Positions 13,676-21,019 of a DNA stretch of 64,000 bases are shown piece after piece (the first letter of the stretch is position 1; each line of letters starts with the position of its first letter). The notes under the pieces are model-generated. The model searched no databases. It saw only the letters and a list, made by a program, of their open reading frames with translations, and was not told where the DNA came from. The stretch lies in the NCBI GenBank assembly GCA_024233595.1, contig JACKPK010000001.1, positions 153,260 to 217,259 on the forward strand, in the 5' to 3' direction. The position numbers were made by a program, and so were the translations under genes. This DNA comes from Deltaproteobacteria bacterium. GTDB taxonomy: Bacteria > UBA10199 > JADGCS01.

Positions 13676-14344
13676 ATGTTTTCGTTTCTTTGTTCCTCTC
13701 TTGGTAAAAAATACCTCATGGCTTTAACAGGCCTTGGCCTCATCGGTTTTGTGATCGCACACTTAATCGGAAACCTTCAGGTTTTTGCTGGTCCCGAAGC
13801 CATTAACTCTTATGCTCAAACTTTAAAAGACCTTGGCCCCCTTCTTTGGGTCGCACGCGGTGGTCTCATTGTGCTCTTTGTCACTCACCTCACTTTAGCG
13901 TTGCAACTTAACCGCACCAACCAAATGGCTCGGCCCATTGCTTACGCCAAAGCCGACACCATCAAAGCCACCCTCACTTCGCGCACCATGGTTTTGAGTG
14001 GCCTCCTTATATTATTGTATGTGATCTACCACCTCTTGCACTTCACCATCCACATCATCGACCCATCCTACACAGCGCTTCTGGACGCGCAAGGTCGTCA
14101 CGATGTCTACCAAATGATCATCGCCGGCTTTTCGCACCCTGTGATCACAACCACTTATTTGCTCGCCATGTTTGTGTTGGCGGCTCACTTGCACCACGGC
14201 GCATCCAGTGTGTTTCAAACATTAGGACTTAACAACGGCAAATACCGTCCTATCACTTCTCTTATTGGACCAGCTTTGGCATTCTTGGTGTTTGTGGGTT
14301 ACGGCTCTATCCCTGTTGGGGTCATGTTGGGCTGGATCAACTAA
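13676..14344 (+). CDS. sdhC: Succinate dehydrogenase/fumarate reductase diheme cytochrome b subunit
   Basis: SSLGKKYLMALTG, His ligands in FVIAHL, FVTHL, IYHLLH and AAHLHHG. Confidence 0.93.
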   Translation: MFSFLCSSLGKKYLMALTGLGLIGFVIAHLIGNLQVFAGPEAINSYAQTLKDLGPLLWVARGGLIVLFVTHLTLALQLNRTNQMARPIAYAKADTIKATLTSRTMVLSGLLILLYVIYHLLHFTIHIIDPSYTALLDAQGRHDVYQMIIAGFSHPVITTTYLLAMFVLAAHLHHGASSVFQTLGLNNGKYRPITSLIGPALAFLVFVGYGSIPVGVMLGWIN

Positions 14345-17110: not shown

Positions 17111-17590
17111 ATGAAACCAAGCAAAGCAACCAAGCGGCAATTGAATGCCGAGTTATCGGCTATCGAAGATATCTATAGTGTTCTACTCAAACTCACTGCG
17201 GACCAACAAGAGTTTGTGCTGAGCACCGTTTTTCACCGATTGGGCCAAAGCCCAATGAGCTTAAAAAAGCTAGAACAAGGTCTTGTCAAAAAAGGCTCGC
17301 GCAAACGCGGCCGCCCTGTTGGCTCTAAGTCACAAAAGACAGTGCAACCTGACCCAAAAGCAAAAGCGTTTTTACAAGACAAAAGCCCTAAAACCGATGT
17401 GCAAAAAGCCGTGGTGATTGCAGGTTATTTAACACAAAAAGGAAAATCGCTTTTTAAAACAGGTGATGTGCGGATGGTGAATGAGCAAGCTGGACTTCGT
17501 CAGTTTGCCAACCCAACACAACCCTGGACCAAGCAGCGGCACAAGGCTTGTTGCTACAGGTTGGTAAGTCGCAGAAAAATTAACCTCTAA
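17111..17590 (+). CDS. Hypothetical basic protein with an AT-hook-like motif
   Basis: 159-aa ORF containing SRKRGRPVGSK; the C-terminus may be frameshifted. Confidence 0.55.
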   Translation: MKPSKATKRQLNAELSAIEDIYSVLLKLTADQQEFVLSTVFHRLGQSPMSLKKLEQGLVKKGSRKRGRPVGSKSQKTVQPDPKAKAFLQDKSPKTDVQKAVVIAGYLTQKGKSLFKTGDVRMVNEQAGLRQFANPTQPWTKQRHKACCYRLVSRRKINL

Positions 17591-17684
17591 AGGCAGAAGA
17601 CTTGTGGCGTCCTTGCCGGATTAAGATTCGCATGACGAAGGTGCTACTCCGGCCCTTCTTAATCGGCTCATAAAAATACGTCAT

Positions 17685-18733
17685 GAGTTCAATAAGTAAA
17701 TGCAACACCTAGTCATAAAAGAACCTCTCTGGGCTAGAGGATGTTCAAGAGTGAAAAGAGGTTGTTTACAGCTGTCATCTCTAAGAGGTATGTGATTCAA
17801 AAGGCTTTATGTGAATCACAAGTCCATTCGAGAGATAGCTAGGATTCTAGAACGATCCCCCAGTACAATCAGCAGAGAGCTAAGCCGTAATAGCTTAGAG
17901 AGTGGTCGGTATTTAGGTAAAAATGCCGAGAAAGTATCTGATGCAAGAAGGCGTCTTTCTAGAAAAGTGGAAAGAATCCAAAATATCCAAACTAGAGATT
18001 TTATTGAAGAAAAGCTCAAACAGGATTGGTCTCCAGAGCAGATTTCTGGGCGTTTAAAGCAATTAAAGGACTTTCGCCATGTCTGCCATGAAACAATCTA
18101 TCAGTGGATATACAGTGATCGTCCAGATCTGATTGTCTATTTAACCCGTAAGTTTAAAACGAGAATGCCAAGGGGTTATTCATTTAGATCTGGTCCTGGA
18201 AAGCATATTCCTTTCAAAACCCCCATATCAGAGCGTCCTCAAGAAGTGGATGATCGCAAAGAGTTTGGCCATTGGGAATCAGATCTTGTGGTTTCAAACA
18301 AAAATACCAGTTCGTTGTTAGTGACGGTTGAGAGAAAATCGCGTTTTGTGATCATTGGTAGAGTGGGCAATAAAAAGCCTCAAAACACCAGAAAGGCCCT
18401 CATAAACAACCTTTCCGAGGTTCCAGAGCATATGAGAAAATCAATTACATATGACAATGGGATGGAGAATAGAGATCATTGGAAGACCAATAAGGTTTTA
18501 AAAACCAAGTCCTACTTCTGCCAACCTTACCATAGCTGGGAGAAAGGAAGTGTTGAGAATACCAATGGGCTAATCAGAAGGTATCTACCTAAAAAGACAG
18601 ACCTGAGGAGAGTCAAAACCAAGAGATTGAAAGAAATACAGAATCTGCTAAACCATAGACCTAAAAAATGTCTCAACTTTTTAACCCCTTACGAGGTCTT
18701 CTCCTCCGGGTGTTGCACTTAGTTATTGAATCC
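17685..18733 (+). mobile_element. IS30-family insertion sequence
   Basis: 26-bp imperfect terminal inverted repeats (GAGTTCAATAAGTAAATGCAACACCT at 17685-17710 versus the reverse complement of 18708-18733, 21/26 identical) enclosing a transposase; no target duplication recognised. Confidence 0.9.
17811..18722 (+). CDS. IS30-family DDE transposase
   Basis: HTH SIREIARILERSPSTISREL, WSPEQIS, HETIY, GHWESD, ITYDNGME, WEKGSVENTNGLIRRYLPK, LNHRPKKCL. The extreme N-terminus (RYVIQKAL) lies in another frame just upstream. Confidence 0.93.
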   Translation: MNHKSIREIARILERSPSTISRELSRNSLESGRYLGKNAEKVSDARRRLSRKVERIQNIQTRDFIEEKLKQDWSPEQISGRLKQLKDFRHVCHETIYQWIYSDRPDLIVYLTRKFKTRMPRGYSFRSGPGKHIPFKTPISERPQEVDDRKEFGHWESDLVVSNKNTSSLLVTVERKSRFVIIGRVGNKKPQNTRKALINNLSEVPEHMRKSITYDNGMENRDHWKTNKVLKTKSYFCQPYHSWEKGSVENTNGLIRRYLPKKTDLRRVKTKRLKEIQNLLNHRPKKCLNFLTPYEVFSSGCCT

Positions 18734-18857
18734 GCCCGTACTCAGTACGTACATTACTTTCATAAATAATATATCTATTTGTATTTATTATATTTTTTAA
18801 TATTATAAAAAACAGAGTGGTCTTAGGCCTGTTTTAGGGATTAGAGGCTAAAGGCCA

Positions 18858-19098
18858 GTAGTGGCCGTTCGCGAACGGCCAAGAAAATTGCATTAGAATT
18901 ATGGTCGCTCACGAGCGACCACTACATTTTAATGAATAGTGAAGCTGGATTGCTTCGCTGCGCTCGCAATGACAGCAGAACAGTGGAACAAATAGATCAG
19001 TAGAACTTCTTTACCTAGGCTCCTAGGCACCTAAGCACTTACCTGTCGCGCCGTAGTCCGTCCGCCTTAGGCGGAGCGGACGAAGGCAGAAGCTCTTA
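18858..19098. repeat. REP-mosaic direct repeat, copy 1 (241 bp)
   Basis: Near-identical to 20503-20779. Contains GTAGTGGCCGTTCGCGAACGGCC, GGTCGCTCACGAGCGACCACTAC, GGATTGCTTCGCTGCGCTCGCAATGAC and GTCCGTCCGCCTTAGGCGGAGCGGAC palindromes. Confidence 0.95.
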
Positions 19099-19199
19099 GG
19101 TACAATAATTACGAGTCTCTTGCAATTCAATGCCCCTTTAGCGTACAGCCCAATCAACCTCCAAAAGAGCTGCTGATCAACGTTTGACAAGGACTCGCT

Positions 19200-20486
19200 A
19201 TGCAACCTGGATTAACCGCAACAACACCTCACATCGTCAACATCGCTGCTGATGAACTCGTACCCGATTTACAAGCACTTTCTCCCTCACTGGAGTTTCT
19301 TGGCAGACTCAACGAAGGAGTCGATGTGTCTGGACTAAACGCAGCGGGAATCGATGCTGCCCGCATTGTAGGGCCTGTTACACAGCACGCAGGCTTTGTG
19401 CGCGTTGATCTTCTTTCAACAAACAGAGAGCCGGGACAAGCCTACCTTCACACTCCCTACATTGGCACTGTGGTGAATGGCAGGCCTGTTCTTTACCGCG
19501 CTGATGGTGTTCCCCAGATAAGAAGAGTTCCCATTTCAAGAACTCAAGATAGCGCGCTTTTTGAAGAATTAGCACCAAGACAAACAGTCCAGGTGCCTAC
19601 GTTTTGGAGTCGTTTTCTGCCAAGTGTTTTTAAACCTAAAAGAGAACAACAAGATGCAAAATTAATCGAACTCGGCCCTTGGGTCCCAGAAAACGATGGC
19701 CAGTTGCGCGACGCTTTGGTCAAATCAGCCTTGCTTCTAGACAAGCCTGATCTGAGTCTGGTTCCAGACCAAGCTCTGCGTGATCACCTGGAATTCTTAG
19801 CTTTAGTGAATTTCATGTCAGCCAATTTTGTTTTCCCCGAGCTAGACAGCCACCCCTTGGTTACAGACCGCACACAAACTGAATATGAAGAGGATGTGAA
19901 TCAGATTTTAAAGGGATTGCAAGAATTAGACAAAAATAGCTTACTTACTTTTGAAACAACTCATTTGGCCGAAGCGCTAGTAAGCGCTCGCTGGTTTGCA
20001 CACATCATTGATCAATTTGCGACTGAATCTGACGATGACATTTTAAACATGGCACGGGTGTCAGAATACTTTGAGCACCGTTGGGCCCCCGCTGTGATTC
20101 TCTCTCTTAAAGGCGGCGAAAACAACATAAGCGCTCTTTTTGGCGAACTAGAAAACGTTGCTGACAACTATGCCAGTTGGGAATCTCAAAGAGGCCAACA
20201 CTGGGGCACGGCCTATGAACAAATCCTCACCGAAGCTTTGATTTTAGCCAAGGCCCATTCTCCGCAAGATGTGATCACCAAGATCCGTTTGCTGACACAA
20301 CTGGAAAAACGAGAAGACCTGAAACACGCTGCCAAGCTTGCTGGCCAAGCACTCTCAGATCATGCTCTGGCAGATGCGTTTTGGTATGGATCCACAACTC
20401 ACACAGCAGCCGATCATAAAACCATGCTGCATTACTTTACGGCACGATCAAGACAACAAGACTACAGCCCTTTTTTAATTCCCTGA
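19200..20486 (+). CDS. Hypothetical 428-aa protein bracketed by the direct repeats
   Basis: Long open frame with an AAGGA RBS; no signal peptide, TM segment or recognisable motif. Confidence 0.8.
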   Translation: MQPGLTATTPHIVNIAADELVPDLQALSPSLEFLGRLNEGVDVSGLNAAGIDAARIVGPVTQHAGFVRVDLLSTNREPGQAYLHTPYIGTVVNGRPVLYRADGVPQIRRVPISRTQDSALFEELAPRQTVQVPTFWSRFLPSVFKPKREQQDAKLIELGPWVPENDGQLRDALVKSALLLDKPDLSLVPDQALRDHLEFLALVNFMSANFVFPELDSHPLVTDRTQTEYEEDVNQILKGLQELDKNSLLTFETTHLAEALVSARWFAHIIDQFATESDDDILNMARVSEYFEHRWAPAVILSLKGGENNISALFGELENVADNYASWESQRGQHWGTAYEQILTEALILAKAHSPQDVITKIRLLTQLEKREDLKHAAKLAGQALSDHALADAFWYGSTTHTAADHKTMLHYFTARSRQQDYSPFLIP

Positions 20487-20502
20487 TGATTATTAAAACT
20501 CT

Positions 20503-20779
20503 GTAGTGGCCGTTCGCGAACGGCCAAGAAAATTGCATTAGAATTATGGTCGCTCACGAGCGACCACTACACTTTACTTTAATGAATAGTGAAGCTGGAT
20601 TGCTTCGCTGCGCTCGCAATGACAGCAGAACAGTGGAACAAATAGATCAGTAGAACTTCTTTACCTAGGCTCCTAGGCACCTAAGCACTTACCTGTCGCG
20701 CCGAAGCTTTAGTGGAGGCGGACCTGTCGCGCAGTAGTCCGTCCGCCTTAGGCGGAGCGGACAAAGGCGGAAGCTCTTA
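20503..20779. repeat. REP-mosaic direct repeat, copy 2 (277 bp)
   Basis: As copy 1 plus a 5-bp and a 31-bp insertion (AAGCTTTAGTGGAGGCGGACCTGTCGCGCAG). Confidence 0.95.
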
Positions 20780-20791
20780 AGCACAACAAAC

Positions 20792-21019
20792 TCACGCCCC
20801 GCGCTCTTCTTCGTAACGCTTACGCAATGGCGCCGTGAGCTTGCGCCCGGCCAGCACCAAAAACACCGCTGCGGGGCCATGAAAAAACATCATGAACTCC
20901 GGGTGTCCCATGCCGCGTTTGACGAAGATGCCGAGAAAAATCAGAAAAGCAAAGATCGAAAAAAACACCCAGCCTATGCGGATTTCTCGCTTGATTTGAT
21001 GCGCTTCCAATGTCGCCAT
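20792..21019 (-). CDS. Small two-TM membrane protein
   Basis: 75-aa ORF with two hydrophobic segments, last gene of a small cluster divergent from the oxidase operon. Confidence 0.6.
   Translation of the reverse strand: MATLEAHQIKREIRIGWVFFSIFAFLIFLGIFVKRGMGHPEFMMFFHGPAAVFLVLAGRKLTAPLRKRYEEERGA

Follow-up and report, generated by a model that had tools for sequence, protein, structure and literature searches.

Near-identical REP mosaics flank a rare-family gene in the genome of an uncultured deltaproteobacterium

Introduction

A repetitive extragenic palindromic (REP) element is defined by a GT(A/G)G head with an imperfect palindrome after it (PMC2817692), and the occurrence of such palindromes together with a Y1 transposase gene lying between two inverted REPs marks the systems formed by REPs and REP-associated tyrosine transposases (RAYTs) (Nunvar et al. 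2010, PMC2817692). Two inverted REPs that are separated by a short spacer and form a hairpin constitute a REPIN, or REP doublet forming hairpins (Bertels and Rainey 2011, PMC3116915). Here, we describe a locus within a 64,000-nucleotide stretch of DNA from a Deltaproteobacteria bacterium (the window; GenBank assembly GCA_024233595.1, contig JACKPK010000001.1, positions 153,260 to 217,259) in which two long direct repeats built of REPs and other short modules, the left block L and the right block R, enclose a single gene, P0001. The source genome (G000) comprises 1.79 Mb on 15 contigs and is 78% complete. Positions refer to the window unless prefixed with C1 to C15, which denote the contigs of the source genome, and L, R and their modules are given on the plus strand.

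In our assessment, the odds are slightly better than even (a probability of about 0.55) that L and R are neighbouring copies of a composite resembling a bacterial interspersed mosaic element (BIME), which was duplicated and recently homogenised around a resident P0001 through ordinary copying of repeat clusters. The comparison of the two blocks is presented first, followed by the modules, the enclosed gene and similar loci elsewhere in the genome.

Results

Two direct repeats enclose a single gene

Repeat searching and alignment with MAFFT delimit L to positions 18858-19108 (251 nt) and R to positions 20503-20789 (287 nt). These are the same blocks that a previous reading of the letters alone (the sequence-only reading) had reported as direct repeats of 241 and 277 bp, extended here by their last ~10 diverged bases. 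The only open reading frame (ORF) of at least 80 amino acids between them is P0001 (19200-20486, plus strand, 428 amino acids), in agreement with that reading; with the wider end of L, the reported 101 bp ahead of the ATG become 91 nt, and the stop codon lies 16 nt before the start of R as reported. R has the same module order as L and ends 2 nt before the stop codon of a convergent, membrane-like ORF of 75 amino acids (20792-21019, minus strand), the first of a small minus-strand gene group, for which there was no Pfam match. R is therefore positioned between the stops of two convergent genes. From this geometry, RecA-type recombination between L and R would delete P0001 as a circle of about 1.65 kb.

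In a global alignment, L and R show no substitution across 18858-19081 (224 nt), non-palindromic spacers included, which upholds the previous claim that the block was copied as a unit. The substitution-free tract runs from the first GTAG head to the foot of the second GTAG-headed hairpin. All five substitutions that separate the two blocks fall inside the last 27 nt (at 19082-19106; clustering P = 2.9e-5). In addition, R alone carries two insertions, one of 5 nt at approximately 20572-20577 and one of 31 nt at 20703-20733, and the longest perfect runs shared by the blocks measure 125 nt and 69 nt. To the left of the first GTAG, nothing is common to L and R, and on the right, identity decays within the tail of the last module. 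Three sub-motifs of the block were each found in L and R only when searched across the window, and were found in none of 100 shuffles.

As the five substitutions are confined to the last 27 nt, the L/R block is not of one age; a recent 224-nt tract adjoins older homology, the tail being 18% diverged. A tract abutting older homology in this manner is what one would expect if ectopic gene conversion, or another templated recombination event, had taken place between neighbouring clusters that already shared end modules. A single transposition, by comparison, is not expected to land precisely beside an existing homologous tail. A remnant of a tandem duplication was also considered and rejected, as the regions following L and R share nothing with one another, nor do the regions preceding them.

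The same differences bear on whether the arrangement is a product of mis-threading during assembly, in which case the chromosome would hold one block between the IS30 side and the convergent gene, and the segment running from block through leader and P0001 to the module at its 3′ end would derive from a small circle or from the arrangement of another strain and would have been joined in by way of the shared sequence. Several contigs end inside repeat modules (C12:2-44, C5:1-42, C7:15-79), which suggests a short-read assembly, here one of 15 contigs and incomplete, and a swap within the 125-nt identical run would yield one chromosomal block plus a 1.65-kb circle. Against this, the two indels and five substitutions provide L and R with distinct graph paths, and neither the maximal k-mers in common use nor usual read lengths are as short as the identical runs. 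Loci on C2, C6 and C8 have the same geometry with different repeats, and the proposed circle would be without a recognisable replication gene, with the P0001 homologue P0002 (described below) being chromosomal. Because the differences between L and R give distinct paths and three other loci behave alike, the assembly is probably right, and mis-threading is judged improbable.

The blocks are mosaics of a REP/REPIN-RAYT system

The REP unit of this genome is 24 nt long and consists of a GTAG head and the palindrome TGGCCGTTCGCGAACGGCCA, with variants. Under a strict pattern, 36 REPs were found, every one with a perfect 8-bp stem, and they represent nine sequence variants whose differences are compensatory, from C.G to T.A. 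Inverted doublets account for 22 of the 36 (11 doublets). In total, the genome contains 102 short-repeat clusters amounting to 16.8 kb, their extragenic position being judged at the inspected loci only.

A RAYT/TnpA-REP gene, for which a search had been proposed in the sequence-only reading, is present. A search of the genome with the Pfam model Y1_Tnp yielded six matches, including a RAYT gene at C7:13691-14290 (minus strand, ~185 amino acids; PF01797 at 36.7 bits, above cut-off) flanked by inverted REPs of the same type, GTAGTGGCCGCTCGCGAGCGGCCA, at 13720 (+) and 14324 (-). The top NCBIfam model for its product is NF047646, REP_Tyr_transpos (REP-associated tyrosine transposase), with an E value of 2e-21 at a score just under the cut-off of the model, and inspection by eye shows an HxH motif in MPNHIHGII and a YIxxNP tyrosine motif in REYIKNNP. 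GTAG-headed palindromes with conserved stems, a REP-flanked RAYT gene and inverted doublets together support the identity of a REP/REPIN-RAYT system, and blocks L and R belong to this system of the genome's own. By architecture, the blocks can be described as BIME-like, with no sequence relation to the BIMEs of E. coli.

Each block begins with a REP doublet, followed by at least five other modules that are found separately elsewhere in the genome; this, along with the REP stems and doublets, supports the previous description of the repeats as REP mosaics. The layout consists of a REP (+), a spacer, a REP (-), an AT-rich arm, modules B, C and D, and a REP (+) of a second class. Module A (18858-18925 in L, 20503-20570 in R) is the REPIN, in which GTAGTGGCCGTTCGCGAACGGCCA and the inverted REP TGGTCGCTCACGAGCGACCACTAC are separated by a 20-nt spacer. 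Folded as single-stranded DNA, it forms two 8-bp hairpins, and it has 16-29 genomic matches, with about 16 full-length copies genome-wide on 8 contigs. Next to it stands module a (18926-18944), an AT-rich arm (ATTTTAATGAATAGTGAAG; 5-7 genomic matches). Module U, at the other side of the gene, is a member of an AT-rich arm family of which module a is the inverted complement. Module B (18945-18999) is rare, its three genomic copies being those in L, in R and at C2:206064-206118, while modules C and D (19000-19052; TAGAACTTCTTTACCTAGGCTCCTAGGCACCTAAGCAC and TTACCTGTCGCGCC) are dispersed, with 6-16 matches. The second REP class is represented by module E (19053-19081; 5-12 matches), composed of GTAG and TCCGTCCGCC-TTA-GGCGGAGCGGAC, and it is at the end of this module that the substitution-free tract stops. 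All five substitutions are held by the older tail of module E (19082-19108; 1-5 matches). Tails related to it are present at C4:63810-63844 and at other sites, and module E with its tail also occurs independently. The extra 31-nt module of R (20703-20733) is bounded by an 11-nt direct repeat, ACCTGTCGCGC, and is itself dispersed, with copies at C2:124595, C6:111497, C7:66913 and C12:12107-12191, the last being three copies in tandem. Rfam covariance models run over 18650-20950 produced no match at E <= 1.

Repeat modules also stand to the left of both blocks. The left neighbour of L is module X (18745-18857), an AT-rich stretch with CCTGTTTTAGGGATTAGAGGCTAAAGGCC, and module X together with the REP doublet recurs inverted at C1:17691-17896 with 75% identity. 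To the left of R, module U (20470-20502; TTTTAATTCCCTGATGATTATTAAAACTCT) covers the last four to five codons of P0001 (FLIP), its stop codon and the 16-nt spacer. Thus, the edge previously drawn 16 nt after the stop is correct for the start of R itself, but the repeat context extends further left, into the ORF. Module U also precedes module A at C4:63616-63647, where it is intergenic, and diverged copies of it precede REPs on C5 and C11. Genome-wide, the full order A-a-B-C-D-E is found in L and R only. A third, shorter composite at C4:63616-63844 has the order U-A-a-C-D-E-tail, without module B and the 31-nt module; it sits between divergently oriented genes and brackets nothing.

Two further observations concern the wider distribution of REPs and Y1 transposases. 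The exact 24-nt REP pattern GTAGTGGCCGNTCGNGANCGGCCA recurs in metagenome-assembled genomes of distant phyla, namely those of a Calditrichia bacterium (matches in 11 of the retrieved stretches), a Bacteroidia bacterium (6 stretches), an uncultured delta proteobacterium (2 stretches) and a Halomonas (1 stretch). The sharing of this pattern across distant phyla hints at horizontal spread or convergence of the REP-RAYT system. Moreover, a second family of Y1 (HUH) transposase-like genes was recovered in the Y1 search, comprising five paralogues of ~240-270 amino acids at C10:1596-2363, C8:6649-7437, C5:69721-70524, C3:103668-104483 and C1:139450-140376, whose top NCBIfam match is to a RAYT model and is weak (39.6 bits). 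Over 1.1 kb, the C10 and C8 copies share 91% identity. Inverted CATGACGAAGG(T/A)C / GACCTTCGTCATG motifs form the boundaries of at least three members (C10, C8 and C5), which owing to these boundaries look like insertion sequence (IS) elements. The CATGACGAAGG/GACCTTCGTCATG-type motif also occurs alone beside several REPINs and just upstream of the IS30 element in the window (17631-17645).

P0001 belongs to a rare protein family

The P0001 start codon is preceded by a unique 91-nt leader (19109-19199, plus strand) with an AAGGA Shine-Dalgarno-like motif at 19190-19194; the leader has no repeat matches in the genome, and a promoter scan gave no consensus promoter. The frame-specific coding signal of P0001 is weak and positive, at the 10th percentile of the long ORFs of the genome. 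Its composition is unremarkable (GC content at the 89th percentile, tetranucleotide content at the 76th), and a foreign composition of P0001, considered as a candidate, is not supported by these percentiles.

The genome contains no second copy of P0001, no homologue was found in 40 related genomes, and a word-based search of 5.8 billion clusters returned P0001 itself only, its 90%-identity cluster having one member from one contig. An exhaustive HMMER search, by comparison, identified eight relatives, so that the strict orphan status previously assigned to the ORF does not hold. P0002 (415 amino acids) is a full-length homologue with 33% identity to P0001 residues 57-423 (E 1e-37). Its host contigs, up to 146 kb long, are from a marine metagenome; its gene neighbourhood is unrelated to that of P0001, and no repeats flanking it were found. 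The seven other relatives (P0003-P0009) match mainly the C-terminal part, with matches starting at P0001 residues 214-291, and the relatives of this domain include giant proteins (1299 and 7377 amino acids) and a 595-amino-acid protein with an unrelated C-terminal extension. The family alignment contains invariant Trp, Gly-Gly, Glu-Ala and Arg positions, and the C-terminal domain has the signature W-x-P-x-V-x-S-x-x-GG ... HW-x-x-A-Y-x-x-I-L-x-EA. Neither Pfam nor NCBIfam gave a match for P0001 or for six of its relatives. In an AlphaFold2 model of P0001, predicted local distance difference test scores of 70-92 are reached only in an all-helical C-terminal domain (~250-420), the N-terminal half being poorly modelled, and Foldseek comparison with the PDB gave generic helical-repeat matches only (E > 0.08). 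Judged by its coding signal and homologues, P0001 is a real gene that is complete apart from a few C-terminal residues contributed by module U. Its C-terminal helical domain represents an unnamed domain family without a Pfam model.

These properties bear on whether P0001 arrived as cargo. Under cargo acquisition, the gene would have come from a genome or replicon with the same mosaic family through homologous recombination within the block, either by a Campbell-type single crossover of a circle or by a double crossover of linear DNA, leaving a block on each side. Direct repeats around an insert are the expected footprint of such an event, and the absence of P0001 from the 40 related genomes, its single-member cluster and its codon usage at the 10th percentile would agree with an arrival from outside. 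The position of the locus at a synteny break beside an IS30 element also favours it, as does the methyltransferase segment on C2 (see below), clearly foreign at 33% GC and enclosed by direct repeats of 200 nt. However, the gene would already need to be flanked by two blocks in the donor, or to have been carried on a circle that a block closes, so that the origin of the bracket is only moved further back. The GC and tetranucleotide content of P0001 is not foreign, no relative has the gene with such blocks, and tails that are 18% diverged imply that both sites had older homology, which is not the product of a single crossover. Furthermore, the ORF runs into module U and is without a 3′ end of its own. 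Homology to P0002 stops at residue ~423, and the last four to five codons are those of module U. This 3′ end, continuous with a repeat module, fits the arrival of repeats at a gene already in place better than the arrival of a gene that brought ends of its own. From its unremarkable composition, the homology up to residue ~423, the restriction of module U to the last four to five codons and the absence of repeats around P0002, we infer that P0001 is a resident gene. Cargo acquisition by recombination between dispersed blocks, one of the two origins proposed in the sequence-only reading, is accordingly unlikely and is kept as a minority possibility.

Other bracketed loci in the genome

Roughly a dozen long, high-identity, non-coding repeat pairs are present in the genome, and four of these are local direct pairs located 1.6-3.6 kb apart, an excess of local direct pairs with P < 1e-5 in a simple binomial estimate. 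In addition to the present pair on C1, which encloses P0001, direct repeats of ~200 nt and 95% identity at C2:182740-182938 and C2:184625-184821 enclose a gene for an LCM-family S-adenosylmethionine (SAM) methyltransferase. The segment enclosed on C2 has 33% GC, at the 0.1st percentile of the genome, and is clearly foreign; the repeats are composed of AT-rich modules and 48 nt of sequence with normal GC. By these features, no other segment of the genome is as clear a candidate as C2:182740-184821 for an insertion of foreign DNA accompanied by a long duplication at its flanks. On C6, repeats of 145-163 nt and 93-98% identity (C6:106233-106395 and C6:107902-108055) enclose ORFs without a family, and the downstream repeat begins 18 nt past a stop codon, much as R does after P0001. 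On C8, repeats of 125 nt and 99% identity (C8:51243-51367 and C8:54887-55010) enclose an IS30 remnant and family-less ORFs.

The mosaic differs between all four local pairs, which therefore have no 'cassette end' in common. On the earlier question of whether copies of the block bracket other genes, the full block occurs only as L and R and the related C4 copy brackets nothing, but three other loci are bracketed by mosaics of their own. The excess of local pairs fits proximity-dependent recombination between repeat clusters. Because REP clusters are recognised insertion targets, a cluster that was first duplicated in tandem and then received an insertion would fit too, and gene capture at repeat clusters fits equally well; the data do not separate these three options.

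A mobile unit was also considered, in which block, gene and block would move together, with the RAYT or a different recombinase acting in trans on the GTAG-headed hairpins that form the edges; such a unit would be similar to an IS26 translocatable unit or an integron cassette, with REP mosaics as its recombination sites. In favour of this, a GTAG head marks the exact start of the substitution-free tract and the foot of another GTAG-headed hairpin its exact end, the genome encodes a RAYT and five more paralogues of the Y1 family, and four bracketed loci enclose accessory-looking genes. Yet no bracketed unit has a second copy, the mosaic differs at each locus, the REPs at the two edges belong to different classes and have a direct rather than inverted orientation, no integron integrase was found, and the C4 composite brackets nothing. 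To our knowledge, RAYTs have been shown to act solely on REP DNA and not on gene-sized units. The related suggestion in the sequence-only reading, a mobile cassette with REP-mosaic ends, is likewise left unsupported by the single copy of P0001, the restriction of the full block to L and R, the lack of IntI, and the unrelated, repeat-free context of P0002. Movement as a unit is consequently very improbable. An equally slight chance is given to the broader proposal of a gene-cassette system in this lineage that works without an integrase and recombines at RAYT-type hairpin mosaics, by which single accessory genes would be captured, locally duplicated or excised as circles of block plus gene, with the loci on C1, C2, C6 and C8 as its products.

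Two established arrangements were also considered as candidates. An integron was rejected, as the best TIGR02249 matches are Xer-like and reach 85 bits against a cut-off of 265; with the genome being 78% complete, this absence is not absolute. A composite transposon or translocatable unit does not describe the locus either, as the blocks are non-coding, P0001 is present in a single copy, and the full block is found at L and R only.

The upstream IS30 element and the neighbourhood of the locus

An IS30-family insertion sequence (17688-18753, plus strand) lies upstream of L, as previously reported. Its transposase ORF (17811-18722) matches NF033563 with 274 bits and contains the Pfam domains HTH_38 and rve. 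Its inverted repeats are located at 17688-17709 and 18709-18730, and 127 nt separate the IS from L; its right end extends to the GTACTCAGTACGTAC palindrome at 18739-18753. The genome has five IS30 copies, one of them truncated, with 92-97% identity and common flanks that include the GTAC palindrome (window 17661-18753; C2:206482-207514; C3:68126-69170; C4:153165-154257; C8:51451-52295). The conserved termini reach past the obvious inverted repeats into the GTACGTACTSAGTACG palindrome, and solo copies of this palindrome adjoin module U, for example at C4:63590. At least four of the five IS30 copies (C1, C2, C3 and C8) abut mosaic repeat clusters, an adjacency that suggests target preference or shared modules. 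An IS30 composite transposon was rejected, as IS30 ends are found only upstream of L, with none downstream of P0001.

Between sdhB and the IS30 element, an ORF of 159 amino acids (17111-17590) matches no family, its homologues were absent from 20 related genomes, and exact-protein look-ups of both flanking ORFs gave no match. Everything between the end of sdhB and the genes for convergent membrane proteins is lineage-specific and lies at a synteny break. Elsewhere on C1, a ~90-nt unit is repeated in tandem in two arrays at C1:21170-22616, each about 0.5 kb long and with 88-94% identity; units of this repeat are also present in mosaic clusters at C2:150585-150699 and C6:107680-107764.

Discussion

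The arrangement around P0001 can be accounted for by the movement and recombination of repeats rather than of the gene. Composite copies, or partial copies, would have settled in both intergenic regions beside an already resident P0001, and the right-hand repeat would have landed in the last codons of the gene, for which it now supplies the stop. Recent homologous recombination between the nearby copies, by ectopic gene conversion or an equivalent templated repair, may then have homogenised 224 nt, with a conversion tract that would begin at the first GTAG, stop where the second REP hairpin ends and leave the 18%-diverged tail alone. The module-level indels of 5 nt and 31 nt would have come later. 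We infer both the order of these events and the conversion mechanism: an empty site or pre-duplication state was sought in relatives without success, no SdhB closer than 80% identity being available, and on the contig of that SdhB synteny is lost right after sdhB. By analogy with the REP/BIME elements of E. coli alone, the blocks probably act as hairpin clusters at gene boundaries, in mRNA 3′-end protection or in termination between convergent genes; BIMEs are further characterised by the binding of IHF, gyrase or Pol I and by an influence on mRNA stability.

Several points weigh against this account of duplicated and homogenised repeats, beginning with the lack of an empty site in the relatives. 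Conversion requires homology on both sides of the tract, and the left side would qualify only if the REPIN already stood there. Three composites are present in 1.8 Mb, and the placement of two of them around one gene would still need a local-copying step. The segments on C2, C6 and C8 are accessory-looking, with that on C2 clearly foreign at 33% GC, and enclosed segments that are accessory or foreign would be the expected outcome of a process of insertion with duplication. Finally, the C7 RAYT scores 76.4 bits against NF047646, just under the cut-off of 80.

If the plain reading of repeat copying and homogenisation is true, the locus documents a complete REP/REPIN-RAYT system with BIME-like mosaics in a poorly sampled, uncultured lineage, and it clearly exemplifies how repeat clusters lying close together can be homogenised ectopically, which is useful for annotation and for understanding cluster evolution, and is not surprising. 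Of possibly greater weight is that accessory genes are enclosed by local direct pairs in excess. If the four pairs were footprints of gene capture at repeat mosaics, they would represent a recombinase-independent route of gene gain and loss. In addition, P0001 defines a rare, unnamed protein family whose helical C-terminal domain is also found inside giant proteins.

Among known systems, IS26-type translocatable units and composite transposons place direct repeats around a passenger, and a circle of repeat plus passenger is a conceivable intermediate for them. In contrast to these, the flanking blocks described here encode no transposase, and the IS30 element lies outside the bracket with no second IS30 end after P0001. 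Integron cassettes, including clusters of attC sites lacking integron integrases (CALINs), have an attC-ORF-attC organisation that is similar to this locus in that a single promoterless-looking, poorly conserved ORF lies between similar structured repeats and excision would give a circle. They differ from it in that there is no IntI here, the repeats are 250-290 nt of RAYT-type REPs, and one 'cassette' is present rather than an array. In Neisseria, the dRS3/RS arrays and 'minimal mobile elements' form intergenic mosaics of short repeats, and accessory genes are exchanged by homologous recombination in repeated or conserved sequence at their flanks without a dedicated recombinase. The Neisserial mosaics have no sequence relationship to those described here, and natural transformation and strain exchange are documented for that system.

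The closest likeness is to the REP-RAYT systems and the BIMEs of Enterobacteria (PMC2817692), which share with the present genome a GT(A/G)G head and imperfect palindrome, an extragenic, multi-copy distribution, clusters mixed with short motifs, one Y1 (HUH) transposase gene between inverted REPs, and compensatory changes in the stems. Compared with these, the REPs here are few (36 strict REPs in 1.8 Mb), the host is poorly sampled and uncultured, and long AT-rich arms and at least two REP classes are combined in the mosaics. No BIME arrangement in which two 250-290-nt mosaics of the same order bracket a gene was found in PMC2817692 or PMC3116915. Module A agrees with the REPINs of Pseudomonas fluorescens SBW25 (PMC3116915) in its inverted REP doublet, short spacer and hairpin fold, and the REPs of that genome likewise stand mostly in doublets. 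In common with the mosaics here, the REPIN clusters of SBW25 are disordered, as if elements had inserted into or beside others, and near-identical higher-order arrays can occur twice in a genome (PMC3116915). In contrast to those tandem arrays of one REPIN, the duplicated unit described here is a heterogeneous mosaic, the two copies of which stand 1.4 kb apart in direct orientation with a gene between them.

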